Shown: positions 31,301-47,862 of the stretch, in pieces
Layout of the letters: each line of letters begins with the position of its first letter
Numbering within the stretch: position 1 is the stretch's first letter
DNA from: a virus
Length of the DNA stretch: 49,071 nucleotides
Reading direction: 5' to 3' (one strand)
Virus record (IMG/VR): IMGVR_UViG_3300025018_002313
The notes under the pieces: model-generated
Databases searched by the model: none
Seen by the model: the letters and a program-made list of their open reading frames with translations, nothing else
What the model was told of the DNA's origin: nothing
Translations under genes and position numbers: made by a program

Positions 31301-31534
31301 AAAACGCCACTGAGCAAGAAGATGTGACCATTTATTTTGTGGTTGCTGATAAGGAGCTGATCGAGAGTTCTGTGCATACAAATGAATCGTATGAGGGTTA
31401 AGATCCTCCGCGCTTAGAAAGAGTGTAAATGGTTGGTTACCATTACATCCTATAATTCCTGGAGTTGTCGGTATATCTGCCCAAAGAGCAACTGGAAAAC
31501 TCACGGCACTCTGTAATACAAAATTCGTTATCAT
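28394..31534 (-). CDS. baseplate wedge protein in the gp7 position (1046 aa) with NHL-like propeller repeats
   Basis: Immediately follows the gp6-like gene. Size matches T4 gp7 (about 1030 aa as recalled). 'YGIAVDPCYNLWASDSENDMLYKF' is NHL-like. The gp7 assignment is by position and size only. Confidence 0.6.
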   Translation of the reverse strand: MITNFVLQSAVSFPVALWADIPTTPGIIGCNGNQPFTLFLSAEDLNPHTIHLYAQNSRSAPYQQPQNKWSHLLAQWRFTDLSGNYIESIIPSVTSLVTDASGNTLGVIATAQFYYIDDRQSEGCSPVILWAIVDFSDYPVYLDTRDTLENVPGYANSKVGIVMPYFINGTDPLQFDITRNGKYPMFDLYWKDTNIPHVITVRGDTTYISAFCPDKISDSCAHILFDVPPTNYDGYLAGSLDRDLSVLPLSTNVVWTPETGWAYLSAYDNNGFDAQGWIRSSFSTEEVLLSTTITVSGNVSISKTWIHTPYYWISNPTNNTLNRLYYPCFDQTLVDQMTSYLKESKIIDISPAQTIYDVADLQVFTTNIMGLTGFGGIYGIAVDPCYNLWASDSENDMLYKFSTNGVLLSTIDFSDTSSFGTNLGGGTPAGISLDSDGYLWVSFFDSESAVKLNTLDGQICAVISFGFPDPVIDPLFSLYEEADPVYKPTLVETDMNNNVWVSYTNSLSSALWQFDSQGNYLQSITLPTCSNPMDIHIGRTNDVWVSLTYHAGPDYRKGSVNMYSSTTRALLCSISAVNPEYLAIDGGESVWFTEDWNTLTRVTTGGAKTSWTVGVTTIPDWADTEKLEYNALEGLCCDIYGRVFVINSIENVLYLVQDSSLEYFMEITPNNQYSFYNFPTTQYTVSGDSQSKSAQAFGDWCGYRFYRKYSPGVMLSAGSAGFSYIQGESRVFNVEDFTGLEIRKFNESWNASQYVHSLAIPSHINENIVLWDGYMDVVWGNDDTEYGKAFGRQSYERIANFTQNRADIEECNIGQVYDIASKVDVPIDDYQLSYPLELERIMDIISINQQKLWGGRCKCKQNYANSYNVIISGGERTPVLSECELCGHYHPGNRGNAFNPMFYMVTANVPFVTRDKYLSDKYNIIVPPISTVSDDTFNPCTSVTPVICGVYIYPLSASYTWLLPNIYATSTVPNLTEFIETTDRFCFYDFVDISCNQQVAGVINWGDRNTTLSENTSGVNDWYGSGESVEKMLNYILHKGLDLIKE

Positions 31535-33366
31535 TAATATTCAATCGCTTCATAAATTGTTGTCTCAGCTTTAACTACTATCTTCTCAGTAAAATGCTCT
31601 TTATTATCTAAATATGGAAATTTGAAATATTCCAGTGAAACATTTTTCGTAGTTAAAACTCTATCAGTTGGATAAATTGGATTCCATAGTAACATTGATA
31701 AACCATTATATCTAACATTTGGATTATCTTTACGACGAGTATAAAAGGTTTTTATCCCGTCTACACTTAGTATATTATTTGTTAATGTATTTAAATCAAG
31801 TTCTTGACCGAGTGAGATATTATCTCTCGAGAAGTACTCTGTAAATACATCTGCAACATCAAGAGCTATAGAGTTTGTATCTCGTCTTGAATTTGGACTC
31901 TTAACGATATATAGTTCTGTATTTCCAGTATCTTCGAGTGTACCGTTTGCGGATCCATCTAGTGTAATACAAACATTTGTTGCAATATAGACAGGATCTA
32001 AAACGATAGACTCCGATGTAAGAGTCTTTAGAGACCGTAGACCAGATATAATTAACTCTTTCTGAGCCGGGGTTAAGTTTGTAGTTGGATTCTTTGTTTG
32101 TGATATGGTCTTTGGAACAATAACAAAATATACATTATTGAAATTACAACCATCTACAAACAATACCTGGTTATACAATAAATTCGAAACATTATTTGGA
32201 TCTTTTAATCCAATATCATTATAATAGTATTTTACCTGCTCTTGTAGATACGTCCAGTTATTTACAACCGCAACATCATGAATAAGGTTTGCAAAATTTA
32301 TACGAATATAGTTTGAATAATCTTGTTCCGTAATTAATCTATATTGAGAACGGAAACCGCCTGGTGCATTTTGCTTAATCGATTCGATAGATTCCTCTGC
32401 TTGATAGTAGGTTGAAATATTTGTGTTGTCAAAATAGATATCTTTTGCTTGCTGTGTGTTAATAAAAATAATGTTAGTAGATGTTTGCTGGTTAATACTG
32501 TTGATTATTTGATTGAATGTAGTTGTTGAGAACGGGATGATGTTACGTCCACGAATGGAACCAACCCCTACTTCGCCTTCAGCACCATTTGATTGTAAGT
32601 AATAAATTGCAACTCTATCATTTGTATTTAATTTTCTTCCGTTGATACCGTTACCAAACTTAATTTCATATTGTTTGTTTTCGTTAAATCTTATTTCATA
32701 CCCGTTACTAAATGCATCTTCATTATATAGTGACTGCACTCTAGACCACTGTAGCCAATTACCGTTGCTGTAAACATAGACATCAATATTAAAATGGTCT
32801 ACAATGACGTTATCTCCGAGGGTGAAAAATATAATCTCATTATCATTACCAGCGGCGGAATAAATTGGATACTCACGATATCTGCCCTGGTATAGTAATT
32901 TCTGCTTTGTAATGTTTATAAGATTTTCAGTTGCGCCTAATGGCTGTGTTTTTGCAAAAACTATATCTTCATTAAAAGTATATGTTTTTGTTCCGTTTTC
33001 AATATACGAATAACGTGGAATAGTATATAGACCTTCACCGAAAGTTGTGCCTGCCGTCATACCAAATGTTAATGTTGATGTCTGGCGGCCTATTGGCTTG
33101 TAATCAAGAAGTTTTACAATACGATTCATTGCATCATATAGTGTTGTTTCAGAGAACTCTGAATTCGTAGCTGTTTGATTCAGATAATAAAGTAAGGTAT
33201 TGAATGCGTACGCAATTATTTCGTTTATAGTTGAAATATATGAACCTTCATAGTTCTGATCCGTAAAAATATTAGTCTCGTTTAAACGATCCTTGATATA
33301 TTGTTTTAGCGTTAAAGCATCAAAAGATAGATATCCATCTTTTGGTATATTAAATTCTGTTGACAT
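31534..33366 (-). CDS. gp6: baseplate wedge protein gp6-like (Baseplate_J family), 610 aa
   Basis: Follows gp25 as in T4-like phages. The N-terminal region ('YEGSYISTINEIIAYAFNTLLYYLNQTATN...LYDAMNRIVKLLDYKPIGRQTS') parallels T4 gp6 ('FEGSRLNVLCDLLAYNTLYIQQFGNAA...FMRTANLRSSVVQAAQDNGYLP') as recalled. Confidence 0.65.
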   Translation of the reverse strand: MSTEFNIPKDGYLSFDALTLKQYIKDRLNETNIFTDQNYEGSYISTINEIIAYAFNTLLYYLNQTATNSEFSETTLYDAMNRIVKLLDYKPIGRQTSTLTFGMTAGTTFGEGLYTIPRYSYIENGTKTYTFNEDIVFAKTQPLGATENLINITKQKLLYQGRYREYPIYSAAGNDNEIIFFTLGDNVIVDHFNIDVYVYSNGNWLQWSRVQSLYNEDAFSNGYEIRFNENKQYEIKFGNGINGRKLNTNDRVAIYYLQSNGAEGEVGVGSIRGRNIIPFSTTTFNQIINSINQQTSTNIIFINTQQAKDIYFDNTNISTYYQAEESIESIKQNAPGGFRSQYRLITEQDYSNYIRINFANLIHDVAVVNNWTYLQEQVKYYYNDIGLKDPNNVSNLLYNQVLFVDGCNFNNVYFVIVPKTISQTKNPTTNLTPAQKELIISGLRSLKTLTSESIVLDPVYIATNVCITLDGSANGTLEDTGNTELYIVKSPNSRRDTNSIALDVADVFTEYFSRDNISLGQELDLNTLTNNILSVDGIKTFYTRRKDNPNVRYNGLSMLLWNPIYPTDRVLTTKNVSLEYFKFPYLDNKEHFTEKIVVKAETTIYEAIEY

Positions 33367-33381
33367 TATCTATCGTACTCC

Positions 33382-33858
33382 TTAAAATACAAATCCATCT
33401 TTTGTTAATAAACCTTCTAAGCCAACTGGCTCCGTTAGAAGTGGACTACCTACATTTAGTGTTATCACGTATTCGTTCCGATCTTCATATCCAACTATAT
33501 CGAGATTTAATACGCGCACTCTTGACTCCCATTTTCTAATTGCATCACTGATCTCTCTGCCAATTTGTCTCGATAATGTTTCTGTTACAGGCTCAAAAAC
33601 ATATCGTCTTATATCAGAGCCGTACTCAGGTATTAGAAATCGTTCGCCTGGTATCGTATTAAACAAATTCTTTAGAGAATTCCTAATTGCGTTCAAATCA
33701 TATGCAACTTTAATATCTCGACCATTTCCAATAGTACTTTGGAAATTCGCAGCGGAGCCGATTGGATCTTCTGCAAAATCTAAATAAAAATCAACATAAC
33801 TATAATTATCCTCGTTAGTACTTGTATCTTGTAGTGTGTTAAAATTAATAGAGCTCAT
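33382..33858 (-). CDS. gp25: baseplate wedge protein gp25-like (GPW/gp25 lysozyme-like fold)
   Basis: 158 aa with 'LKNLFNTIPGERFLIPEYGSDIRRYVFEP', the GPW_gp25 signature. First gene downstream of the TATAAATA box. Confidence 0.8.
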   Translation of the reverse strand: MSSINFNTLQDTSTNEDNYSYVDFYLDFAEDPIGSAANFQSTIGNGRDIKVAYDLNAIRNSLKNLFNTIPGERFLIPEYGSDIRRYVFEPVTETLSRQIGREISDAIRKWESRVRVLNLDIVGYEDRNEYVITLNVGSPLLTEPVGLEGLLTKDGFVF

Positions 33859-34215: not shown

Positions 34216-35109
34216 ATGAAAAATTTTAGCAGCAATTTTACACAGATTTGTGAAGAAACATTATATCGCTATAACCAAGGTGGTTTTTTACGCGGTGATT
34301 ATGTAACTATTAAAAAGGACGCCCTTAAAAATGATAAGATTGAGAAATTATCAGATCCCATGAAAGCTCTTTTAGAAGATGCAATAAAGAAGAATACAAG
34401 ATTTCGTATTAGTTATATTAAATCAGGTAGATCCGAGGCGCCTAGTGGTCCAGTTGATGCACCGAACATTCCTAGCTGTGCCTGGGCAGATGTTGTAATG
34501 GAATATGCACCGGGCATGTGGAAGGAGCCTATGACTCTTCCTCTTGAAGTTCTTGAGAAGGTAGAACTTGAAGGGGAGATGGATGGCTATCCGCAGTATT
34601 CTGATGAAATTAAAAGAGAAAATGATTACAGCACTAAGGGTGCATCACCAGTGGATCAAACGATGGGGGAAGATTCCAATAGAAAGTTAGCTAGTAAAAA
34701 CACAAAGCTAGCAAATACAAAAAATCCGACACCTGGTGATAAAAAGACTAAAGTACGTGAATCCGTTAATATGCGCCATGAAAATGAGGTTATATTCGAA
34801 TCATATACTAATTCGCTCGAAGAAGGTATCGTTGACTGGGCGGCGGATAAAGCTAAACAAGTAAATGATAATATATCCCAGGGCATAGATATTCGTGCAT
34901 CACTCAATAATCCAGAAAAACTAGCAAATGCATTCTCACAACTTAAACAACAAGATCCAGAAAAACTAAAAGTGACAATTAAAAAACTGCTTGATCAAGG
35001 ATACGATGAACAAGTTACTGCTGCATTTGACTTCCAGGAAGATATAAATCAAGCCATGGGTGATGAGTCAGATAACTGGCATAATGATACAAGCAGTTAT
35101 ATGAATTAA
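34216..35109 (+). CDS. hypothetical highly charged protein (297 aa), plus-strand
   Basis: ORF with AGGAG SD. Lys/Glu/Asp-rich. Contains the internal motif 'HENEVIFESYTNSLEEGIVD' paralogous to the N-terminus of the preceding ORF. Convergent 4-nt overlap with the gp44 stop. Confidence 0.55.
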   Translation: MKNFSSNFTQICEETLYRYNQGGFLRGDYVTIKKDALKNDKIEKLSDPMKALLEDAIKKNTRFRISYIKSGRSEAPSGPVDAPNIPSCAWADVVMEYAPGMWKEPMTLPLEVLEKVELEGEMDGYPQYSDEIKRENDYSTKGASPVDQTMGEDSNRKLASKNTKLANTKNPTPGDKKTKVRESVNMRHENEVIFESYTNSLEEGIVDWAADKAKQVNDNISQGIDIRASLNNPEKLANAFSQLKQQDPEKLKVTIKKLLDQGYDEQVTAAFDFQEDINQAMGDESDNWHNDTSSYMN

Positions 35110-36047
35110 TTTAGTATTTGTAATAGTTGTATTATACAGCAAAATGCATTGATTTCAAAATCCATTACCTGCTGATGAGACTCCATGTAACGACCTACCG
35201 TTAACATGGAGTTTCTCTTTTTGTCTTCTGGTATATCTTGTTCAAAGATATGCTCGAATAGACCCTTTAATAGCAACAAGTAATCACTATTAAATTCTAA
35301 CTCATTCTCTATTACATACTTACGGATCTCGTTTGCACTTTTATTGTCAGATATTAAACTAAAGACCTTACTTGGAAACATAATTTGTGATAGCTTCTCC
35401 GGAATCCTTAATACACCGTTAATAGTATACTGCTGCACACAATTAATAGTACTACGAAGATCCGGATATATAAACTTAATAAGTGCAATTAGTCTCTCTT
35501 TTTGTTCAGCAGATACTTTAACACCTTCAGTTTTTATAATCTCAACCACGCGCTTTACACATCCATCGAATGGTGGTACGATTTCAAAAATCTGTGTGCG
35601 TGAACGAATAGCTCCAATAATTCGGTTCTTATAATTCGCTGTTAAAATGAAACGAACATTATTAATATACTCTTCCATTGTATTTCGAAGAGCTCTCTGT
35701 GCGTCTGGAGTAAGACCATCCATTTCATCCAAAATGACTATCTTTAATCCCCCATCAAATGACTTAGTCTGTGCAAAGTTAATAACTTTTTCCCGGATAA
35801 CGTCAATGCCTCGTTCATCCGAAGCATTAATATATCGATAGGATGAGCCTAACTCTTTTACAATAATCTTTGCTAATGATGTTTTACCAGATCCTGGTGC
35901 ACTAACAAATAGAATATGTGGAATTTTACCATCCTTGAGTTTCTCTTTAAAGAATTCAAGTGTTTCACTATCTAGAATCATTTCGTCTAAAGTTCCTGGT
36001 CTAAACTTTTCTACCCACACATCGTCTAAATCAAAATCATTTAACAT
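35106..36047 (-). CDS. gp44: clamp loader subunit gp44-like (AAA+ RFC-type ATPase)
   Basis: Matches to T4 gp44 as recalled: 'EKFRPGTLDEMILD' vs 'EKYRPSTIDECILP'; Walker A 'GKIPHILFVSAPGSGKTSLAKI'; 'SFDGGLKIVILDEMD' vs 'SFDGRQKVIVIDEFD'; sensor 'SRTQI' vs 'SRCRV'. Confidence 0.9.
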   Translation of the reverse strand: MLNDFDLDDVWVEKFRPGTLDEMILDSETLEFFKEKLKDGKIPHILFVSAPGSGKTSLAKIIVKELGSSYRYINASDERGIDVIREKVINFAQTKSFDGGLKIVILDEMDGLTPDAQRALRNTMEEYINNVRFILTANYKNRIIGAIRSRTQIFEIVPPFDGCVKRVVEIIKTEGVKVSAEQKERLIALIKFIYPDLRSTINCVQQYTINGVLRIPEKLSQIMFPSKVFSLISDNKSANEIRKYVIENELEFNSDYLLLLKGLFEHIFEQDIPEDKKRNSMLTVGRYMESHQQVMDFEINAFCCIIQLLQILN

Positions 36048-36122
36048 GTATTATTATCCCTCCTGGAGCGTATGTATCTCTGTGTTTCCGTTGTTTGATT
36101 AATAAATCACAATATGATTACA

Positions 36123-36611
36123 TTAAATCTTTCCGCTTGATCCAAACCCATTTTCTCCGCGCTCTGTCTCTTCAGCTGTCTCTATCCAATCAACAGCAAA
36201 ATCGACCAATGGGTAAACTGCAATCTGTGCAATGCGCTCTCCAGGCTCAACTACATAATCTTTATCAGACAGGTTATATAATTTGACTCCGGTGTCCCCG
36301 CGATATTGATTATCTATTACCCCGGGATGTGGTATTATACCATGTTTAAAAGACAACCCACTACGCGCTTCAATCTTGAACCAAAACCCTGGCGTGATAT
36401 ACCCCACCTTAATTCCGGTTGGTATAATAGCTGAACATTTTGCTGGGATTGTCGTTCCTTCAATACCGTAAATGTCATAGCAGGTATCACACGTTCCTTC
36501 CAACACATAGGAGACTTCCCCGTCTTTTTCAACATCCAATGGTATATTGTCGTGATTTCGTTTAGGTAATTTTGCTTTATCATCTGTTTTTACAAATTTT
36601 ATCTTAACCAT
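36123..36611 (-). CDS. dut: dUTP diphosphatase (trimeric dUTPase)
   Basis: All five dUTPase motifs are present: 'EARSGLSFKHG', 'GVIDNQYRGD', 'GERIAQIAVYP' and C-terminal 'ERGENGFGSSGK'. Confidence 0.9.
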   Translation of the reverse strand: MVKIKFVKTDDKAKLPKRNHDNIPLDVEKDGEVSYVLEGTCDTCYDIYGIEGTTIPAKCSAIIPTGIKVGYITPGFWFKIEARSGLSFKHGIIPHPGVIDNQYRGDTGVKLYNLSDKDYVVEPGERIAQIAVYPLVDFAVDWIETAEETERGENGFGSSGKI

Positions 36612-38394: not shown

Positions 38395-38628
38395 TTAAAC
38401 AACTGTCATGAACACTGGACCAGCCGAGACTTGTCCTGTTGTTGTATTTGCAAAGCAAATCTGTCCACCAGAAAGATATATTTCAACCTGCTGGCCTGAA
38501 AATGCTGCTGCATCTGTCACTCTTTCAGTCATTGCAACGCCTCCATCAGCTGCGAGTTGTGCCGCAATTTTGCTGATATTGTCGTTTTCACTTGCTGTAT
38601 AAGCTTCACCTGAATTTTTATTTTCCAT
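38395..38628 (-). CDS. small protein (77 aa) immediately after the major capsid gene; candidate capsid decoration protein
   Basis: AAAGGAGAAATT-ATG RBS. Same size class and position as T4 Soc, but no sequence similarity seen; the Soc analogy is positional only. The antisense 38408..38602 ORF is rejected. Confidence 0.5.
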   Translation of the reverse strand: MENKNSGEAYTASENDNISKIAAQLAADGGVAMTERVTDAAAFSGQQVEIYLSGGQICFANTTTGQVSAGPVFMTVV

Positions 38629-38671
38629 AATTTCTCCTTTATAGCTTTTGTACTACTATCAGTGTAAATCG

Positions 38672-38693
38672 AGGGAGGGGTTGCCCCCTCCCT
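38672..38693 (-). other. GC-rich 9-bp hairpin (AGGGAGGGG-GTTG-CCCCTCCCT) 8 nt after the gp23 stop; no U-tract
   Basis: Perfect 9-bp G/C stem that stands out in this AT-rich DNA. No poly-U follows on the minus strand, so it is probably an RNA stability/processing stem or attenuator rather than a full terminator. Confidence 0.5.
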
Positions 38694-38700
38694 TTACCGA

Positions 38701-40188
38701 TTATAGATACTGATGTGCCGCGCCAGGAACGAAGCCATCGCCTAGATCCTTAACAACGATTACATGGTAGTATAGATCAGCACCAAAGATGTGATCAACA
38801 ACACCGTAACGAGTCATAAGACCAACACGTGGGCTCATATCGTTTGGACCGATTGTACGCTGTACCATAACTGGGATGTATGGGCAGTACACGATACCTG
38901 TATCGTAATATTCAGAACCCTTATATCCGAGCAAGCAATACTCAAGACGGGTTGTACGCTGGGTCTTATACCCTGGATTACGCATCCATGGCTGTTGAGC
39001 CTCGGTACGTGTATCACGGTAAACCGTGAAGCGTCCGGCGAGTACACCAACCTTAGACACACCAACCTGTTGGGTTGAAACTGTGCTATTTACTGGCATA
39101 AACTTGAATTCAGGAAGCATTTCCATGATTGTGCAAACTGTTGGGGTTGCAACGATGAAGTTAGCAGCACCACGACGGTTACGAACAGCAATACGATTTG
39201 CTTCGATTAGAACCTTCTGATAGAAATCACGGTTACGTTCACCCAACCAACGTGCGTCAGCAGAGATAGGAGTCCATGTGGAGTATCCATAACCAGAGCC
39301 TGCATTAAGAGCGATCTGAATCATTCTCATGATCATTTCACGGTCAATTTCGGCCTGAATTTCGTACGACATTGCATTGGTAAGCTCGTTATCAATATCA
39401 ATACCGTTCATGTTCTTAAGATCTTGCTCGAGCTCGACCGACCATTTTGCTGCCAGACGACGTGTACCAGCTTCAACAGCTGTCTTCTCGAATTCAATGG
39501 TCATCTGTGGAATCTGACCAGTCATTTCATAATTCGATAGCCACTCTGCAACACCACCATCTTCTGGCATAAACTCGAAGTCAGAGGCTGAGCCTAGACC
39601 CGATAGGTATGCGGACGATGTACCAGTATAACGAGTGTCAAGGAAGTTGTAGCCAACCTCTTTGCCATCTGCTGCAGCCTGCGCTGCGCTACGGTACTCA
39701 TCTGGGTTTGTTGCGTCGTAAGTACGGCGTGATGGATCCTGCCAATCAAGGCTTGCACCATCATAACGGTAGCGGAGTGCGAACGCAAGTCCGACCGGGC
39801 CGCTCATTGGCTGCACACCAACGATTTCGTTGGTTATTAATTCTGGGAATGTACGACGAATCATCGGGATAAGTACTTTTGGCAGACGAGCATCACCCGT
39901 TGCGTAAAAGTCTTGGTTACCGACGTTACCGCCCTGATTTCCAACTGTTGCTGGCGAAGCACCATATCCGAATACGGACCCTGGACTTCCTGCTGCTGTC
40001 GTTTCTCTTAAACAGTAACGCTCTTGGTTTTCCAAGAGGATCGCTGTATTCATTCTTGTGTGCTCGTTTTCGATTGGCGCAACTGTTTTGGATTCATAAT
40101 TCAAAACTGGGTCCCATTTTTCAAGGAGTGTCTGCGCCTTACTAGAATCGATATAAGCTGCACCTGGATTTATGTCTTTTTGTCTCAT
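38701..40188 (-). CDS. gp23: major capsid protein, T4 gp23 family
   Basis: 'NEIVGVQPMSGPVGLAFALRY' vs T4 'FDICGVQPMNSPTGQVFALRAVY'. 'GYKGSEYYDTGIVYCPYIPV' vs T4 'GYKGPNEMDAGIYYAPYVAL'. 495 aa. Confidence 0.95.
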   Translation of the reverse strand: MRQKDINPGAAYIDSSKAQTLLEKWDPVLNYESKTVAPIENEHTRMNTAILLENQERYCLRETTAAGSPGSVFGYGASPATVGNQGGNVGNQDFYATGDARLPKVLIPMIRRTFPELITNEIVGVQPMSGPVGLAFALRYRYDGASLDWQDPSRRTYDATNPDEYRSAAQAAADGKEVGYNFLDTRYTGTSSAYLSGLGSASDFEFMPEDGGVAEWLSNYEMTGQIPQMTIEFEKTAVEAGTRRLAAKWSVELEQDLKNMNGIDIDNELTNAMSYEIQAEIDREMIMRMIQIALNAGSGYGYSTWTPISADARWLGERNRDFYQKVLIEANRIAVRNRRGAANFIVATPTVCTIMEMLPEFKFMPVNSTVSTQQVGVSKVGVLAGRFTVYRDTRTEAQQPWMRNPGYKTQRTTRLEYCLLGYKGSEYYDTGIVYCPYIPVMVQRTIGPNDMSPRVGLMTRYGVVDHIFGADLYYHVIVVKDLGDGFVPGAAHQYL

Positions 40189-40215
40189 AATAATTTTCTC
40201 CGTGCTTAAAGAGGT

Positions 40216-41130
40216 TTAACCTCTGTGTGATCTATCCTGTTGTTTTAGGCTTTGTAGATATTCGGAAACAGCTCCTTCGTTTTGGTCTGCACTTTCCTGG
40301 ATAAGTTCAACATCTTTCTTAGGCATATCGACCTTGTTGGTCATGACCTTAGTTTTCTTCTTAGCGTCCTCCGCCAAGACGTGTTGATTTTCGTTCTCGT
40401 CCTTTTCGAACATCTTAACTACATAATCAAAGTTCTCTGTAATATAATCAGGGTCTTTTCCGGATAATACCCTCATAACATAGTGTTTTTTCGTCTTATC
40501 GAAATTCTTCGTGATACCTTCAAGAATTAAGCTTGACTTTGTAGTCTTCACTTCTTGGTTGAGCTTAATGTTCTGCTTTACAGCTTCATTAAGTTCATTC
40601 TTTAGAGCATCAATCGTCTTTTTACCGTCTGCAACTGCTTCTCGAATTGTATCATTTACATATTCTTCATCAATTGCAACTAGGCTCTTAATTTCATCGA
40701 GTGTTCTCTGAGCCTGTCTGTTTGAAACAGCCTCTGCAATCTCACGCTTCGGAACTGCATCCTCGAGATAAAGGTCTAGGTAATTGGACAACTGCTTTAC
40801 TAGTTGCTTTTTAAAGTTGCCAGCATCTTCTTTAATAAGTGTTTGATTCTTCTTAATCAAATACTGTAACTTCTCTGTATGGTCCTCGTCTAACTTTTGT
40901 AGTACACCTGTAAGTTTCTGTGTGTGATCTCTATCGATCGCCTCAAGTAGTTGAGAAAGTTGCTTTGTATGCTCTTCGTCGAGCTTTTCAAGTGCGGACT
41001 TTACTTCTACCTCAAGTCGATCCGTAGCACTCTGTTCGACAGCTTCGTTAAAAGCATCGATTAGAAGTGTTTTAGTATCTTCAGATAAAACATCGGTACC
41101 AATCTGGTCAAGAACATCTGTAATCTTCAT
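40216..41130 (-). CDS. gp22: prohead core scaffold protein, gp22-like
   Basis: 304-aa acidic, Lys/Glu-rich, all-helical protein directly upstream of gp23. The N-terminus 'DAFNEAVEQ' echoes T4 gp22. Confidence 0.7.
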   Translation of the reverse strand: MKITDVLDQIGTDVLSEDTKTLLIDAFNEAVEQSATDRLEVEVKSALEKLDEEHTKQLSQLLEAIDRDHTQKLTGVLQKLDEDHTEKLQYLIKKNQTLIKEDAGNFKKQLVKQLSNYLDLYLEDAVPKREIAEAVSNRQAQRTLDEIKSLVAIDEEYVNDTIREAVADGKKTIDALKNELNEAVKQNIKLNQEVKTTKSSLILEGITKNFDKTKKHYVMRVLSGKDPDYITENFDYVVKMFEKDENENQHVLAEDAKKKTKVMTNKVDMPKKDVELIQESADQNEGAVSEYLQSLKQQDRSHRG

Positions 41131-41133
41131 TGT

Positions 41134-41298
41134 TTATTTCTCCTTTGATAAATTCTTCCTAATTAGGTTCTTGACTTTTTCTTTAACGGCTGAGTCAAGA
41201 CATGCATTTGCACTAGCTAGTTCGCCGTTACAAACATGGTTTATAAACTCACGAATACAGCGCTCATCTGCGGACTCTTTAATAATTTTCTTTCGCAT
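41134..41298 (-). CDS. possible small Cys/His-containing ORF (54 aa) between gp21 and gp22
   Basis: Below the track cutoff. ATAGGAGTATTCT-ATG RBS. 'C-x6-H-x-C-x9-C' spacing. Its 3' end carries the gp22 SD (AAGGAGAAATAAACA-ATG). Confidence 0.35.
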   Translation of the reverse strand: MRKKIIKESADERCIREFINHVCNGELASANACLDSAVKEKVKNLIRKNLSKEK

Positions 41299-41345
41299 AG
41301 AATACTCCTATATTTTTAAATACTTATGGTTCTTAAGAGATATTT

Positions 41346-42038
41346 TTATGCGTTCTTGAGGGCTTTGAGTATATCAAGAACAGCATTTCTGATTTTTTCT
41401 TCTCTTGCAACAGAATGTCTAGGTAAAGAACCTAAACTTGTTTCAAACTTATTATATGATTCAGTAATTGACCCATCAAAATTTAAGATCCATTCTTTTG
41501 CTTCCATAATACCGTTTACAAATGCTTGTGCACCGTTAGGGCCAGCGTTTACTGAAGGATCATGCACAACATCACAGCAAATTAAATGAAACCCATTTAC
41601 TTGATGTGACCCATCGCCCATAGGATTTAGCTTGCCTAAAGCTCTAGATGAAATTCCAAGCTTCACTCCATCCATAATTAAACTGCGAACTACCTGTCCC
41701 ATAGGATTAGATAAAACTTTCGACTTACCTAAAAACACATTATTTTCTTGCTTTAGTTCGGTGACCATATGACATGCTCGCTCTGGATTTACTTCAACTG
41801 AAGCAGGGTGATTAAGTTCGCCGAGTGACCTGTTTTGTGTAACCATTTCTGAAATGTATCTATGTACTTCTGGTACCATTTCATTCAATGTATAAATGCG
41901 GCCATTTTTATTCTTTTGCTCAGCCATTAAGTACGGCCCGCGAATGTACATTGTGCTTGCTTCTTTTGAATTTTTCTCATCGAGTAGTACATCGTACTCG
42001 TAAACTGGTTCTTCAATTAACAGTTTTAACGGTGTCAT
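41346..42038 (-). CDS. gp21: prohead core protease gp21-like
   Basis: 'SLGELNHPASVEVNP' vs T4 'ALGELNHPPRANVDP'. 'GISSRALGKL' vs T4 'GVSSRGLGSL'. Track ORF (to 42152) trimmed to the Met of 'MTPLKLLIEE', which has an AAGGAGATTA SD. This removes the overlap with the next gene. Confidence 0.9.
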   Translation of the reverse strand: MTPLKLLIEEPVYEYDVLLDEKNSKEASTMYIRGPYLMAEQKNKNGRIYTLNEMVPEVHRYISEMVTQNRSLGELNHPASVEVNPERACHMVTELKQENNVFLGKSKVLSNPMGQVVRSLIMDGVKLGISSRALGKLNPMGDGSHQVNGFHLICCDVVHDPSVNAGPNGAQAFVNGIMEAKEWILNFDGSITESYNKFETSLGSLPRHSVAREEKIRNAVLDILKALKNA

Positions 42039-42094
42039 AGTAATCTCCTTTAAATTATTTATCTCTTTATGTCCAAAAATACTCAATAAACCAT

Positions 42095-42538
42095 CTATCG
42101 TAAATCTTTTTCTGTAAGTATTGCAAAGTGGTATCCGTTTTTCTGGCACCATGCTTTAGCAGAATCCCATTTTTGTTGATTTACTGCCCATTGTATTTGC
42201 TCATATAAAATCGTAGATCTCTTTTTATTTTTACTTGTTTTAGGTGGTACTGCTTGAGTACTCGGCTTTACTTCAATTAGATATTTCTTAACACCGTTTG
42301 GTGTTTTCATTTTAATATTACCATCAACAAAATATCTATGAGTTTTACCATCTTTTGGACTTATATACGGTAACACAACGGACTCTGAACCGAAACTAAT
42401 AATATTTTCATTGCGATCGCACCATCGAAGAAAAGATAACTCAAGACCGCTTCGATACACTATAGGCAAAGTCCCTTTATATTTTTCAGGATGCTCAGGA
42501 TGGTATATACCTTGTTTATATGGATTTTTTCTTCTCAT
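42095..42538 (-). CDS. TnsA-N-like PD-(D/E)XK endonuclease (147 aa)
   Basis: 'SGLELSFLRWCDRNENIISFGSESVVLPY...DGKTHRYFVDGNIKM...KKYLIEVKP...AKAWCQKNGYHFAILTEKD' follows the TnsA_N / restriction-endonuclease-like pattern (E ... D ... E-V-K, then Y-x-F-x-i-l-t-e). No SD upstream of the ATG. Confidence 0.5.
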   Translation of the reverse strand: MRRKNPYKQGIYHPEHPEKYKGTLPIVYRSGLELSFLRWCDRNENIISFGSESVVLPYISPKDGKTHRYFVDGNIKMKTPNGVKKYLIEVKPSTQAVPPKTSKNKKRSTILYEQIQWAVNQQKWDSAKAWCQKNGYHFAILTEKDLR

Positions 42539-42627
42539 TTAAAATATTTAAAAATTCTTCAAAATTATTATCTAGAACTAAACAAAAGTTATATCCAGCA
42601 TCTATTTCTACAGAAATATGTCCCCAC

Positions 42628-43095
42628 TTACCAACTAGGTAAATAGCTACCAGTAGAAAAGCTTTCTTCTAGGGCATCGTCTTCGTCTTTCTCATCTTCA
42701 GTATCGTCCCCTTCAGCTTCTTCCTCGGTGGTCTCATCTTCATCATCTGTTTCATTTTCAGACTCTTCATCTTCGATCTCCTCGTCCATGTCATCGCCTA
42801 TTTCAAGTGCAATTCCTCCGAGACCTAGTCCGTCGCCATCGCAGGGCATATCTACGCCAGTTACACTTACTTCGCCTGCTATACCTAATTCATTCTCAAC
42901 TATAGTTCTAAGCGAATCAAGCGCAGACTGAATAATTTCACTAATATTACCACCGATTGGGCCTGATGTACCTTCAATTGCTTGCTCAATTGCTTCTTCT
43001 GCATTCTCTTTAAACAGATCAACAAGGATCTTGTTATACTGTTTCTGCAACTTATCTATTTTACCTGATATTCCAGTTTTCTTTTCTTCTTTCAT
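42628..43095 (-). CDS. acidic prohead core-like protein (155 aa) with a poly-Asp/Glu C-terminal half
   Basis: 'DDMDEEIEDEESENETDDEDETTEEEAEGDDTEDEKDEDD'. Sits in the gp67/gp68 position relative to gp21, but the assignment is positional only. Confidence 0.5.
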   Translation of the reverse strand: MKEEKKTGISGKIDKLQKQYNKILVDLFKENAEEAIEQAIEGTSGPIGGNISEIIQSALDSLRTIVENELGIAGEVSVTGVDMPCDGDGLGLGGIALEIGDDMDEEIEDEESENETDDEDETTEEEAEGDDTEDEKDEDDALEESFSTGSYLPSW

Positions 43096-43118
43096 TTTAT
43101 TCTCCTAAATAATACAGC

Positions 43119-43988
43119 TTAAAATATAGCTGTTGTAATATCATAAAACGCTTCATCTGATGCAACGTCTTGTAACTCTCCTAACTCTTTCAACGGTGTG
43201 ATAAAAATCTCATTTGTCTTTGGCTCTTCTGTTAATTCGATCATTCCTAATTGTTTTAATCCGTGAAGAAGTCTGTAAAATCGATCTTTAAAGCTTGTAA
43301 AAGATCGGCCGTATGAACCTTGTTTATTAGGCTTTTCCGTCTGTTTTAAATTTCTATACATCTTATGTAATTCATCGGAAAAAATACCTTTGCTGGATAA
43401 TCTAGGGTCTTTTCCGCTTTTACTATACCTAGTTAATTTACTTAATGGTACTGTGTTTCCTATCCCCACTGCTTGTAAAATTTCCGCATACAATTTAAAT
43501 AGAAAATCTCTTCTACCCTGTACTGGCATTCTTTTTCCGCCGGTCTTCTGTATTACTCTAATATCTTCATTTTCTAATACACGACCTATATTAGGTGATA
43601 AACGTACTCCTTGAAGCTTGTGTATTTTACCGTTTCTCCATGCTGATTTAAACCGACCGGATGCATTATATGGAAGCCCGTATTTCCTATCCTTCGATCT
43701 AATTTTTCCGGTATATACATCATTCGTTATAATCCAAAAATCTCCTTCTTTTATTCGATTCTTATATTCATCTCTTACATTATCTGATTCATCTCCCCAA
43801 AAACCTTCTTCATAATAGTATTCGTCATCTGGTATATCCCATGTCTTCCATCTAACAAAATACCAAACAGAACTATTATACCCCTTTATAAGGATATAAT
43901 ATCTAGTATAAACAGTATCAAAATAATCTTCGAATAACATTATATTACCCCAGAAAGAATCGAGCAGGTGTAACTTCTCCATAGCCAT
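43119..43988 (-). CDS. hypothetical basic protein (289 aa) with a C-terminal HTH-like segment; alternative start at 43940
   Basis: Lys/Arg/Tyr/Trp-rich. The C-terminal 'SFKDRFYRLLHGLKQLGMIELTEE' looks like a DNA-binding helix. Overlaps the upstream gene by 44 nt unless it starts at Met-17 (43940), which directly follows that gene's stop. Confidence 0.5.
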   Translation of the reverse strand: MAMEKLHLLDSFWGNIMLFEDYFDTVYTRYYILIKGYNSSVWYFVRWKTWDIPDDEYYYEEGFWGDESDNVRDEYKNRIKEGDFWIITNDVYTGKIRSKDRKYGLPYNASGRFKSAWRNGKIHKLQGVRLSPNIGRVLENEDIRVIQKTGGKRMPVQGRRDFLFKLYAEILQAVGIGNTVPLSKLTRYSKSGKDPRLSSKGIFSDELHKMYRNLKQTEKPNKQGSYGRSFTSFKDRFYRLLHGLKQLGMIELTEEPKTNEIFITPLKELGELQDVASDEAFYDITTAIF

Positions 43989-45285
43989 TCATTAGCTCTT
44001 CTTCTAGTGCCTTCTTTTCTTCCAATCCTTGTGATAGTAAATCGTTATAATTAATAACACCACCGCCGAACATTTGTATATTCTGGTACTTACCGCGAAT
44101 ATTACCGATTGCTATTTTCGTAATAGCCAAAGCATAATGTTCAATCCATCGCTCCATAATTAAATCACGTATAGGCTTCTCTACCCAAGCACCCACACAT
44201 CCATAATATCTCTGCCCTCTATTAGGTGCAGGTATAATTCTAAGTAACTGATTACGATTATCAAAATCAATATATGGAACTTGAGCAAGTACCTTCTTTC
44301 TTAAATCCAACCAGCCTTTCATAACTTCCCAAGTTACTAAATCGAACCCTACGTTACCCAACATATAACTAAAATATGTCTGCTGTGCCATAGCTTGTTC
44401 AAGTGTGAACAAAGTATTAATTCCTGTAGACTCTCCTTGCTCAAACCCGAATATATTTATAACTTTTCTATAATCGGCCAGATCGTAATCCCAACAAGCT
44501 GATGCACCGTCAAATAAAGTCTCCGCCAATGCAGGGGTAATTGAAAAGAGTTTATCAATTCTTAATCCAGGCTCAGAATATAAATCAGAATGAAATACTA
44601 AGTACTCTTCTGTAAATCCAGCATACTTTGTATACCACTCGATTGCCTTGTCTATAAAATCGACAATCTGTGAATCTTCACATACTTCAAGATTAACAAA
44701 CGGTGCACCAAGCTGATATTTTATACGGCTAATTAAATTTCCATACGTTTTGATCTTACTATTTAAATTTGTACTTCCACCTGGCTCATTAATACTAATA
44801 CGCTCGTCCTTTGTTGGAGTGTACATAGCAGTGTCAATCTTAATTGAGTCCATTGCTACTGTAGACGTAAACGGAAACACGGTGGAATACATCATCAACG
44901 GTATACCGTACCCTACGTTGTTTACTTTTAATGTTACATATCTACCAGTGGATGAAAGCTGTGAGACGATAGTAGGGTTTGTAACATTTATTGGTGCCGC
45001 TCTATTTGACTGCGCAATCTTGTATAGTGGTAAACCATACCCAGATGTATTAACAGTTGTTGCTAATGCAGCTCCATAACTTGTTGCACTTGTAACTAAA
45101 GTTACGTTTTTAACGTCAATATCTGTTCTTTCAAGTTCAATAATATCCATACTTGGAACGGATGCGGTGAATGTAAAAAGTGGCATTCCTACCTTCTTCT
45201 TGTTTACTTCTAATTCAAGAAAGTATTGAGATGAAGTAGTTCCTGTTACTATTGTACTATTTCTAAATTGTAATACATTGCTCAT
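43945..45285 (-). CDS. hypothetical virion/structural protein (446 aa)
   Basis: Long ORF with Thr/Ser/Val-rich beta-type N-terminal half and a helical C-terminus. Not recognisable as a portal. Confidence 0.6.
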   Translation of the reverse strand: MSNVLQFRNSTIVTGTTSSQYFLELEVNKKKVGMPLFTFTASVPSMDIIELERTDIDVKNVTLVTSATSYGAALATTVNTSGYGLPLYKIAQSNRAAPINVTNPTIVSQLSSTGRYVTLKVNNVGYGIPLMMYSTVFPFTSTVAMDSIKIDTAMYTPTKDERISINEPGGSTNLNSKIKTYGNLISRIKYQLGAPFVNLEVCEDSQIVDFIDKAIEWYTKYAGFTEEYLVFHSDLYSEPGLRIDKLFSITPALAETLFDGASACWDYDLADYRKVINIFGFEQGESTGINTLFTLEQAMAQQTYFSYMLGNVGFDLVTWEVMKGWLDLRKKVLAQVPYIDFDNRNQLLRIIPAPNRGQRYYGCVGAWVEKPIRDLIMERWIEHYALAITKIAIGNIRGKYQNIQMFGGGVINYNDLLSQGLEEKKALEEELMNGYGEVTPARFFLG

Positions 45286-45294
45286 ATTCGATCC

Positions 45295-45807
45295 TTACTT
45301 GTTTGCGTAATACCCGGTGTCAATGAAATCAACAACTATTCCTCTTTCATCGTCCTTCACAGAAGACATACCTGGTAGATTGTACCAATTAACGAATAAG
45401 TTACCCCAAAGATTATTATGCCATGGAGGTGTTAGTTTTAATCTATATTCGATATCATGCGCTACTTCATGCTCTTGTACAGCATCACTGTAATCATTGT
45501 AGTCGTCAGGGCTACATACTACCCAGCATTGACGGTTTCTATAGTTATACCACCCCCCAATCCATGCACCATTATGTTCCGGGAACGGTGATCTAACTGC
45601 CCACATATAGTCAAATTTTTTGCTACCTTTCGTCAGATAGTACTCTCTTCTGTTGTCGTCTTTATATTTTGGATGTGTATTAGTTTTTATTTTTTGAATA
45701 GCATTGTTTGCGTTACCATAACAACGATATAAATTTATACCTTCTCCATGTTTTAATTTCTTTTTTGCTAATCCAAAAAATACTAATATATTGTAAAATA
45801 ATCTCAT
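45295..45807 (-). CDS. small protein with N-terminal hydrophobic segment and an HExxH motif (170 aa)
   Basis: 'MRLFYNILVFFGLA' looks like a signal or anchor. 'VQEHEVAHDIEY' contains HEVAH. Trp/Tyr/Asn-rich. Confidence 0.45.
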   Translation of the reverse strand: MRLFYNILVFFGLAKKKLKHGEGINLYRCYGNANNAIQKIKTNTHPKYKDDNRREYYLTKGSKKFDYMWAVRSPFPEHNGAWIGGWYNYRNRQCWVVCSPDDYNDYSDAVQEHEVAHDIEYRLKLTPPWHNNLWGNLFVNWYNLPGMSSVKDDERGIVVDFIDTGYYANK

Positions 45808-45894
45808 AACTCTCTTTCTTATTAACTGTTATTGTTGTGTATCTTCTTGAAGTATTTAGTTAAACAGTGCTTAAATCGTGTATTTGTGTTTCTC

Positions 45895-47862
45895 TTAAAT
45901 ATTTGTACGCTTGTTGAACTGATCCAGATACAACGATTGAGGGGTAAGGGTATTCCCGTTGCCCTTACCTTCAACAAAATCTAGTGGTTCTGTATTATTA
46001 GTAGCTGGGTTTAAATTATTAACATCTGGACATTCTGCACACGTACCGATTACATAACCATATCTCCCCTGTTCAGTCTCAACTGTATACAAATATTCGT
46101 TTTCGCTAGATTTCATATTCCATACAACACAATGAGCCGCCGTTAGTCCGTGAGGTATTGTTCCGAAATTCATTCGGTGCTTAAAAGAGAAGAAACTATC
46201 AATTACTGTACATCCGTCCAATAGATTACTATGCGAGAAATGTAAATGATGGCCACTTGATCTTGATCCTGCAACATATCCATCAATTCCCGACAGCCCT
46301 GTAGCTCTTTCTGTTCTCTTGTCTGTACATCCGAATAAGACGATACCCGAGGCATTTGCTGTTGATATTAAAAATCCGTGTCTATTGAATTCAGCGATAC
46401 AGTTCTTAACAAGAATATCATTAGACCTTAATACAAACATACAGCCATTACCACCACCACCATATTCTGTTCTTTGAAAATAACAATCCTCTAATGTTAA
46501 CTGGAAGCTGTTGTCTACCTGAATTCCATTTGACAATATATGACACGTAGAGGTTGAATTAGATGCTGGCTGATAAGTGTAAACACGACGAATCCATGAA
46601 TCATAAGAATCATACATTTTTATTACATAACTACCATGCACTTCGTACCCTGTGGTTCCTTCGACAAGCCAATCGTCATTGCCAAATCCTCCAGTAGTAT
46701 TTTCTACATTGCCTATTGAAAAATCTTCTATCCCAACTTCCGATAAAAATCCTGTCGTTCTTAAAACACGCGCATTATCTCTTTGGAACATTGAATATCT
46801 AGTTGGCACGTCGATAGTAATGATATTATTAACATAATCAACAGAAACAACTTTACGAAAATAATTACATGGCTGAGGATATCCGTTCGTTGAGTTCCAG
46901 TAAGCTTCCTGACCGTGATCTGCAACCCAACCATCTGTAAAATCCCACTTCAATAGAACTATATCCCCTGCTGAATAAGCTGAAGAATCCGCGACAGGAA
47001 TTATTTTTGTTGGGCCTGTCAAATCGGATACAATTAATGTTTCATCACTTTCTGTAACAGAGGTACTTACATTTATAATACTCTTTAGACGCATATTTGT
47101 TTCGGTGTTTAGAATATATGTTGAGCCTACTCCCTCACCTCTTAGTATGATATTATTTGACGTTATACTGAGACAATGTGAATTGACACCTGGCGATATA
47201 CTATATGTTCCTGATGGTAGATACACAACTCCGCCTCCTGCTAATGCCGCCGCATCAATTGTATCCTGAATTGCTGATGTAGAATCAGTAGAGCCAGTAT
47301 TATCAGCACCATAGTCTACTACGTTAAATACAGAAGTTGAGGGTGATGGAATTGCTTCTTCTCCCTTCTTATATCCTGCATATGAAAAATCTTGAATAAA
47401 TCCATCTGTGTAGAAACTATTAGTATCAGTTGGTGGTGTCCAATCTGAAGGATACAAAGTTGATTCCCACTTTGTCCCATATGGAGGAGAATTTTTATAT
47501 GGATGGTCACTAGGTAATTTACTAACCAATCCCCACTTCCACGCCAAATAGCCTTCTGTTTTTTCCCTAGTAATATCATCCGCAGAATGAATAACTATCT
47601 CACCTATTTTAACCTTACAGTAATTACCACTAGTATTATCCCCACCTAAATATAGTCTATCAACACCTATATAATCGACAGTTGTTTCGTTTTCCCTTAG
47701 ATTTCCGTTTGCGTATACAATACTGCTTGTGCCCTCTGCAAAAAGTGTAGATATATTTGCCGGTGTCCATGCCGGTGTCCATGCCGGTCTTTCATCAATA
47801 TACAACCTTGTAGTATTTGTATACCACCTTGTAGCATTTGATATAGAGATACGATTACTCAT
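45895..47862 (-). CDS. tailspike / polysaccharide depolymerase with pectate-lyase-type right-handed beta-helix (655 aa)
   Basis: 'VVDYGADNTGSTDSTSAIQDTIDAAALAGGGVVYLPSGTYSI' is the canonical start of pectate_lyase_3-type tailspike helices. AAGGAATAA-ATG RBS. Contains the tandem 'PAWTPAWTP'. Confidence 0.75.
   Translation of the reverse strand: MSNRISISNATRWYTNTTRLYIDERPAWTPAWTPANISTLFAEGTSSIVYANGNLRENETTVDYIGVDRLYLGGDNTSGNYCKVKIGEIVIHSADDITREKTEGYLAWKWGLVSKLPSDHPYKNSPPYGTKWESTLYPSDWTPPTDTNSFYTDGFIQDFSYAGYKKGEEAIPSPSTSVFNVVDYGADNTGSTDSTSAIQDTIDAAALAGGGVVYLPSGTYSISPGVNSHCLSITSNNIILRGEGVGSTYILNTETNMRLKSIINVSTSVTESDETLIVSDLTGPTKIIPVADSSAYSAGDIVLLKWDFTDGWVADHGQEAYWNSTNGYPQPCNYFRKVVSVDYVNNIITIDVPTRYSMFQRDNARVLRTTGFLSEVGIEDFSIGNVENTTGGFGNDDWLVEGTTGYEVHGSYVIKMYDSYDSWIRRVYTYQPASNSTSTCHILSNGIQVDNSFQLTLEDCYFQRTEYGGGGNGCMFVLRSNDILVKNCIAEFNRHGFLISTANASGIVLFGCTDKRTERATGLSGIDGYVAGSRSSGHHLHFSHSNLLDGCTVIDSFFSFKHRMNFGTIPHGLTAAHCVVWNMKSSENEYLYTVETEQGRYGYVIGTCAECPDVNNLNPATNNTEPLDFVEGKGNGNTLTPQSLYLDQFNKRTNI

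Follow-up and report, generated by a model that had tools for sequence, protein, structure and literature searches.

In the virus sequence IMGVR_UViG_3300025018_002313 from IMG/VR, a gene for a protein of 147 amino acids (aa) with nuclease motifs lies inside a cluster of head genes, at a place where phage T4 has no such gene. The whole stretch of 49,071 nucleotides (nt) that was analyzed is called the window here. A sequence-only reading had proposed that the 147-aa TnsA-like protein is a freestanding homing-endonuclease-type insertion, perhaps together with a basic protein encoded beside it, or else a nuclease recruited into head morphogenesis. The question raised by this locus is whether the nuclease gene is a selfish newcomer or a resident of the head operon. 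We found that the protein, as judged from its sequence, is an ortholog of T4 gp4, the head-completion nuclease, and is resident, not inserted. The phage is T4-like, deep-branching and uncultured, and the locus is its operon of late head genes. Both junctions beside gp4 are variable slots, which in relatives are empty or filled by selfish nucleases. In the window, the slot between gp13 and gp4 holds two accessory genes, one for a 273-aa protein (called X here) and one for an acidic protein, and there is no mobile nuclease in the window. We put the probability of this reading of the locus, gp4 and the slots as a whole at about 85%.

Identity of the 147-aa nuclease

The 147-aa protein matched Tn7_TnsA-like_N (PF08722) of Pfam with an E-value of 5.5e-19, above the curated cut-off, over residues 43-143 and as a single domain; Phage_endo_I was matched more weakly (6.7e-4). 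The TnsA N-terminal or PD-(D/E)XK fold that had been expected from the motifs was thus found, including the very Pfam family. The protein also matched phrog_218, the 'head completion' family of T4 gene 4 (annotated 'head closure'), with an E-value of 3.6e-49 over residues 7-147. By tblastn it was found in 2575 phage records, 2547 of them at near full length, and the annotated ones are almost all called head completion protein, closure or nuclease. These records comprise T4-like phages of enterobacteria, cyanobacteria, vibrios, Aeromonas and Acinetobacter as well as Ackermann-type phages. Since the major capsid protein gp23 was found in 2601 records by tblastn, gp4 and the capsid gene are about equally widespread.

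The series E33...D72...E89-V-K91 and the C-terminal W..G..F.ILTEKD, both of which the sequence-only reading had pointed out, are present in the protein. E33, D72, E89 and K91 are invariant in an alignment of the protein with a Tequatrovirus gp4 and three relatives from the lineage. The protein shows ~40% full-length identity to Tequatrovirus gp4, is of nearly the same length (147 vs 150 aa), has a single domain and shares the same E-D-ExK; like gene 4 of T4, its gene stands among late morphogenesis genes, namely those for gp13, gp21, gp22, gp23, gp6 and gp25 in the window. It differs in its neighbors. Gene 4 of T4 and cyanophages lies beside the baseplate genes 53/48, in T4 also beside gene 2, whereas here it lies between gp13 and gp21. 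Hardly anything weighs against the assignment; no NCBIfam model matched the protein, and the sequence search detected no solved structure.

In previous work gp4 was described as a virion-associated nuclease with a TnsA-like restriction-endonuclease fold and as a hallmark of T4-type phages (PMC7824862), and it was listed among the core morphogenesis genes (PMC2993671). As Benler et al. 2020 (Virology 543:7) are cited in PMC7824862, T4 gp4 has a non-specific DNase activity required for morphogenesis and acts after DNA packaging, and the filled heads are then able to join tails. Going by that citation, the alternative of a nuclease taken into service for head assembly describes T4 gp4 to the letter; the recruitment is, however, already known and ancient and is not a local novelty.

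The likeness to TnsA of Tn7 and to T7 endonuclease I, which have the PD-(D/E)XK fold, is limited to the domain-level matches given above. A Tn7 TnsA transposase was considered and rejected. Unlike TnsA, the protein has no TnsA C-terminal domain, its neighbors are phage structural genes, and PHROG scans of the other genes of the window suggested no transposition genes as partners. The protein is probably a phage morphogenesis enzyme, not a transposase or resolvase.

Position of gp4 in related loci

Because no close cultured phage was available, metagenomic relatives were collected. They comprise the X-bearing contigs L001, L007 and L009 and 28 IMG/VR loci found via gp13 alignment, and were annotated by means of profiles and reference proteins. 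The order in all loci that cover the region is gp13, slot A, gp4, slot B, gp21, (small open reading frame, ORF), gp22 and gp23, where slot A is the junction from gp13 to gp4 and slot B that from gp4 to gp21. gp4 lies between gp13 and gp21 in L001, L007, L009 and each of the IMG/VR loci L017-L043, and it is never absent where the region is spanned. The gap between gp13 and gp4 is -4 to +3 nt in nine loci, and that between gp4 and gp21 is 24-83 nt in most. This constant gp13-gp4-gp21 order indicates that gp4 is resident and that its unusual position belongs to the gene order of the whole lineage and does not stem from a local event.

Between the window and L001, gp4 shows 1.39 synonymous substitutions per site (dS) and a ratio of nonsynonymous to synonymous substitutions (dN/dS) of 0.09; dS of its neighbors, gp13, X and the acidic gene, is 1.16-1.47, and as dS is near saturation these dN/dS ratios are rough. 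No bracketing repeats were found around gp4.

The sequence-only reading had noted that the nuclease gene lacks a Shine-Dalgarno sequence and had taken this for a sign of a selfish gene. Indeed, there is no Shine-Dalgarno sequence in the 30 nt upstream of gp4. However, the lack is typical of the lineage: gp4 of L001 starts 3 nt past the preceding stop codon and is likewise without a Shine-Dalgarno sequence. The missing ribosome-binding site of gp4 may reflect translational coupling, because the gp4 start of the relatives abuts the preceding stop codon. In the window an 89-nt spacer precedes gp4; in the closest relative the acidic gene and gp4 are just 3 nt apart. The 89-nt spacer showed no stable RNA fold (z = +1.18), no promoter consensus and no Rfam match.

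Variable slots on either side of gp4

Genes of several nuclease kinds lie at the gp4 junctions of relatives (Table 1). One family comprises proteins of 345-388 aa in which several helix-turn-helix (HTH) modules are combined with DUF7487 (PF24308) at the C-terminus; these resemble freestanding PD-(D/E)XK homing endonucleases. Their DUF7487 domain carries E...D...ExK and weakly matches Phage_endo_I, PDDEXK_3 and the gp4 PHROG. Among the others, the HNH homing endonuclease gene of L001 is accompanied in slot B by a gene for a paralog of the C-terminal domain of X, and both genes are absent from the window. In two IMG/VR contigs, L024 (143 kb) and L040 (203 kb), the gp21 ORF encodes 592 aa vs the usual ~225 aa. 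The intein-like insert in it comprises ~368 aa right after GELNHP, begins with Cys, ends with ...GN followed by Ser, and has the blocks LGIWLAEGY and YWFNLGDGRF.

Genes of the kind of the freestanding homing endonucleases of T4-like phages (Seg/Mob type), with the HNH and the multi-HTH + DUF7487 genes among them, occur at the same gp13/gp4/gp21 junctions in L001, L013, L020, L021, L028-L036 and L041. Unlike them, gp4 of the window occurs throughout the lineage and carries no module for binding DNA, and X has no nuclease motif. The sequence-only reading was therefore right to suspect selfish nucleases at this place, since they do occupy the junctions of relatives; the gene that it picked is the resident one. 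It had also expected that inserted genes would be absent from close relatives and that the neighbors would abut there. For the nuclease this was not the case. For X it was, yet the closest relatives keep X and X carries no nuclease motif.

Protein X and the acidic protein

X is an accessory protein that is rare, evolves fast and carries a winged-helix domain. A search of 5.8 billion protein clusters gave three matches, which were X itself, a relative with 57% identity and a fragment, and a profile search of 1.84 billion representatives added three full-length relatives with ~25% identity; about seven members of the family are known. As to further X-bearing loci, IMG/VR gave only the already-known contig and the JGI metagenomes two short contigs. 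In tblastn against the phage collection, X had no match at E up to 1. Neither X nor the acidic protein matched anything in Pfam, PHROGs or NCBIfam, even at E up to 10, and a sequence search of the PDB with the X profile gave nothing. Profile comparisons of X with T4 gp68, the DUF7487 proteins, gp4, the 'DNA binding protein' encoded between gp13 and gp14 in Paraglaciecola phage GD1, and the P-SSM3 gene downstream of gp4, which is itself tail-tube-like, were also negative.

X was modeled with AlphaFold2 (AF2). The model from a 3-sequence alignment was poor, with a predicted local distance difference test score (pLDDT) of 50, and that from a 6-sequence alignment had a mean pLDDT of 73. Foldseek with both models against BFVD gave no match at E <= 0.001. 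Residues ~11-135 are predicted to be beta-rich. They contain invariant Y14, W26, W34, Y41, F68, Y76 and Y87 and no invariant acidic residue, and this N-terminal domain matched no known fold. Residues 140-273 are predicted to form helices and a beta hairpin. In the model the C-terminal part has the fold of a winged helix, with a three-helix bundle and a beta-hairpin wing that can be superposed on known winged helices. The middle of X (residues 70-215) is basic, with an isoelectric point (pI) of 10-11 and a modeled disordered loop at residues 172-183, and both ends are acidic. X had been described as a 289-aa Lys/Arg/Trp-rich protein with an HTH-like C-terminus; that C-terminus holds, while the start has to be moved to give 273 aa and the protein is basic only in its middle.

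Within the subclade nearest the window, X is present in L001, L007 and L009 and not in L017, L019 and L022, and these two sets are interleaved by identity. In L009 the X gene follows the acidic gene, instead of preceding it, and overlaps the gp4 start. X of the window and X of L001 are 57% identical, vs 96-99% for gp13, gp22 and gp23. In the same comparison dS of X and gp13 is alike (~1.17), dN of X is ten times higher, and dN/dS is 0.24 for X vs 0.023 for gp13. Thus, X is a real, working gene under purifying selection, though of a much looser kind than that on gp13 or in part diversifying. The L001 paralog that adjoins the HNH gene is related to the C-terminal winged-helix domain of X with an hhalign E-value of 4.9e-5. 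Motifs for gp21-type cleavage, (L/I)xE, were inconsistently conserved in X and the acidic protein and were not used as evidence.

The acidic protein is encoded by a third gene that went unmentioned when the genes between gp21 and the structural genes were first remarked on as unlike those of T4. It is composed of a conserved helical N-terminal part of ~80 aa, a Gly-rich linker and a variable poly-Asp/Glu tail. Orthologs were found in L001, L007, L009, L017, L019 and L022, and the N-terminal ~80 residues are kept across the whole subclade. Many relatives have gp13 directly against gp4 and lack both the acidic gene and X. The acidic protein resembles the T4 prohead core protein gp67 in its build, a short helical N-terminal part to which a long Asp/Glu tail is attached, and in the place of its gene, which within the head cluster lies shortly ahead of that for the protease. 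However, it is twice as long as gp67, and no homology between the two was detectable (hhalign probability 1%).

Gene layout of the window

All real genes within 38-49 kb of the window lie on the minus strand. Read in the order of transcription, the head operon comprises gp13 (neck), X, the acidic gene, gp4, gp21, a 54-aa ORF, gp22 and gp23 (Table 1). The start of X is most likely the ATG at 43940, 4 nt past the gp13 stop codon, which gives 273 aa instead of the 289 aa of the ORF to 43988; gene callers chose the 273-aa length on other contigs. The start of gp21 is most likely the ATG at 42038 behind AAGGAG, which gives 230 aa instead of 268 aa, and therefore gp21 does not overlap the nuclease gene.

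Table 1. Features of the window and of the gp4 region in related loci
Feature	Locus	Position (nt)	Strand	Remarks
Fibre-like ORF	window	47863 to beyond 49071	minus	incomplete, runs off the window end; FG-GAP-like repeats
Pectate-lyase-fold tailspike-like protein	window	45895-47862	minus	655 aa
170-aa protein	window	45295-45807	minus	no assigned role
gp13-type neck protein	window	43945-45285	minus	446 aa; phrog_211, 7e-18; tblastn matches to annotated gp13/neck proteins
X	window	43119-43940	minus	273 aa; beta-rich N-terminal domain, basic middle, predicted C-terminal winged helix
Acidic protein	window	42628-43095	minus	155 aa; pI 4.05; strong Shine-Dalgarno sequence AGGAG
AT-rich spacer ahead of gp4	window	42539-42627	minus	89 nt; without Shine-Dalgarno sequence
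gp4, ortholog of the head-completion nuclease	window	42095-42538	minus	147 aa; PF08722 and phrog_218 (E-values in text)
gp21 prohead protease	window	41346-42038	minus	230 aa; Pfam Peptidase_S77, 2e-24; phrog_207, 3.4e-49
Basic ORF between gp21 and gp22	window	41134-41298	minus	54 aa; conserved in relatives
gp22 scaffold	window	40216-41130	minus	304 aa; Pfam T4_CASP, 2.7e-06; phrog_237
gp23 major capsid protein	window	38701-40188	minus	495 aa; Pfam Gp23, 2e-91
dUTPase-like gene	window	36123-36611
gp44-like clamp loader	window	35106-36047
gp25	window	33382-33858
gp6	window	31534-33366
Very large ORFs	window	6705-31534	minus	1364, 1542, 926, 1305, 1580 and 1046 aa
Multi-HTH + DUF7487 proteins, slot A	L021, L028-L036, L041	L021 3016-4095; L029 3441-4478; L041 10877-11956		345-359 aa; several HTH modules and C-terminal DUF7487; weak PD-(D/E)XK, Phage_endo_I and phrog_218 signals
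Multi-HTH + DUF7487 gene, directly upstream of X	L013	96-1262		388 aa
SNase-like gene, slot A	L035
EndoVII-like gene, slot B	L020
Paralog of the X C-terminal domain, slot B	L001	4978-5649		223 aa
HNH homing endonuclease, slot B	L001	5706-6407		233 aa; phrog_559, 9e-57
gp21 ORF with intein-like insert	L024, L040	11468-13246		LAGLIDADG blocks; conserved GELNHP/S site

The T4-type order 20-67-68-21-22-23, with which the sequence-only reading had compared the locus, was verified. gp23, gp22 and gp21 had been called contiguous; all three are present, with the 54-aa ORF separating gp21 from gp22. This ORF shows 89% identity in L001 and 67% in L009, is also found in L019-L022, and has no counterpart gene at that place in T4. 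The assignment of gp13 was also seen in precomputed Pfam annotation (PF26809, Phage_T4_gp13) of identical or related products, and the L001 copy is 96% identical. At its N-terminus, gp13 of the window is extended by ~150-170 aa relative to gp13 of outer relatives (~295 aa) and of Acinetobacter phage 133 (306 aa); L001, L009, L017, L007 and L020/L021 share this extension.

There is no portal gene within the window, as had been remarked before. In relatives the portal gene lies upstream of gp13, directly adjacent to it in L007, L023 and L035 and 0.5-9 kb off elsewhere. At the place where these relatives keep a nearby portal gene, the window has the 170-aa gene, the 655-aa tailspike-like gene and the long ORF at its edge. 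The portal gene of this phage must lie beyond the window.

A blastn search with positions 38500-46000 against 50,697 phage records gave no match, indicating that no cultured phage is related to the lineage by DNA similarity, and gp23 is at most 34% identical to that of any cultured phage. The gene order beyond the head genes is strongly shuffled relative to T4: replication genes (34216-36611), which include the clamp loader and dUTPase-like genes, lie between the baseplate genes and the capsid module. The very large ORFs presumably encode tail-fibre or baseplate proteins. Among those scanned, only the 1364-aa protein matched a PHROG, a family with no assigned function, with eight repeated stretches. 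The T4 late-promoter sequence TATAAATA was not enriched and did not occur upstream of gp4, and scans for sigma-70 promoters and terminators gave results at chance level.

Discussion

An insertion of the 147-aa gene would account for its PD-(D/E)XK fold, for the missing Shine-Dalgarno sequence and for the lack of such a gene at that place in T4, and selfish nucleases do occupy neighboring junctions in relatives. Against an insertion, the gene is an ortholog of a core gene found throughout T4-like and Ackermann-type phages and sits at the same place in every relative that spans the region. It has no added DNA-binding module, in contrast to the multi-HTH + DUF7487 proteins of relatives. Its dS lies within the range of its neighbors, its dN/dS is low, and no repeats flank it. 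The missing Shine-Dalgarno sequence is shared by relatives in which the gp4 start abuts the preceding stop codon. We therefore regard the homing-endonuclease-type insertion, with or without the basic protein, as extremely improbable. As a resident nuclease, gp4 would trim or process DNA at the portal, after which the neck proteins would seal it. With gene 4 beside neck gene 13 and directly upstream of the prohead genes, the head-completion factors might be made together with the head.

The role of X is a matter on which we are much less confident. A tentative proposal, which we hold at well below even odds, is that X is a late protein co-expressed with the head, that its basic middle and its winged helix bind DNA, and that it accompanies the packaged DNA to protect it or to bind its ends, similar to gp2 or to an internal protein. 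X would then have the acidic protein as its partner, in the prohead core or as a chaperone. This proposal is based on the operon coupling of X to gp13 or gp4, its linkage to gp4 as in the case of T4 gene 2, its basic middle and winged helix, its gp2-like patchiness, and its arms-race-like evolution. Several points weigh against it. No homology between X and gp2 was detectable, the HTH of T4 gp2 is N-terminal, which is the reverse of the order in X, and, with a pI of 4.6, the winged helix of X is an acidic domain. In addition, the patchy spread, the swapped position in L009 and the paralog beside the HNH gene fit a mobile-element origin equally well. An extended form of the proposal is that X and its acidic partner are an undescribed accessory module of T4-like heads, in which X is packaged or associated with the portal and either binds the DNA end made by gp4 or shields injected DNA from host defences. 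X might then stand in for missing gp2 or internal proteins, its fast evolution might come from an arms race with the host, and its aromatic-rich N-terminal domain might be a new domain for binding DNA ends or host factors. We consider this form rather speculative.

The main rival for X is that it is derived from a selfish or mobile element, as a decayed homing endonuclease or the DNA-targeting partner or cargo of one, and has no virion role in the gp13-gp4 hot spot. X occupies such a slot, its paralog adjoins the HNH gene in L001, and a DUF7487 gene lies directly upstream of X in L013. On the other hand, the N-terminal domain has no invariant acidic or catalytic residue, X resembles neither DUF7487 nor gp4 nor any family of nucleases, its dN/dS of 0.24 suggests a maintained function, and it is tightly coupled in the operon to gp13 or gp4 and always paired with the conserved acidic gene. 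This origin has perhaps one chance in a few. That X is an unrecognizably diverged homolog of the T4 DNA-end protector gp2, kept near its partner gp4, is unlikely. Gene 2 directly follows gene 4 in T4-type phages, gp2 was proposed to work with gp4 (PMC7824862), and X is adjacent to or near gp4. The two proteins are also alike in size (274 aa for gp2 vs 273 aa for X), in having an HTH-type domain and in basic character; gp2 is dispensable and missing from some T4-like phages (PMC2993671), which fits the patchiness of X; and the best hhalign match of X, though weak, was gp2. However, the probability of that match was only 4% (X family vs a 15-sequence gp2 alignment), a profile comparison with a single gp2 sequence was negative as well, neither PF26869 nor phrog_429 was matched with E relaxed to 10, the two proteins carry their domains in reverse order, and Foldseek against BFVD gave no gp2-like match. 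Still less credible is that X is the very divergent gp14 neck protein of the lineage, even though its gene directly follows gp13 in the window, L001 and L007, which is the place of gene 14 in T4, its length of 258-276 aa is near the 250-251 aa of the annotated gp14 proteins compared, and no recognizable gp14 was found within 10 kb of gp13 in any related locus. The hhalign probability was ~0.1% with gp14 of Acinetobacter phage 133 (Acj133) and Paraglaciecola phage GD1, X did not match the gp14 PHROGs that Acj133 gp14 matches, and X is absent from most related loci.

In conclusion, the nuclease of this locus is nothing new in kind; it is another gp4, with a fold and a role that are already published. 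What the locus adds is an uncultured T4-like lineage that keeps the head-completion genes 13 and 4 joined to the prohead genes 21-22-23. gp4 is thereby placed physically with the genes it works with, which fits a role at the portal. Because the gp4 junctions are hot spots of selfish nucleases, annotators risk confusing the resident nuclease with mobile ones, or the reverse. The remaining novelty lies in the mobile-element hot spot around gp4 and in the gp4-linked X, an orphan winged-helix family whose N-terminal domain has no recognized fold. If X truly is packaged and protects DNA, it would add a new case to the ways in which phages shield the DNA that they inject.

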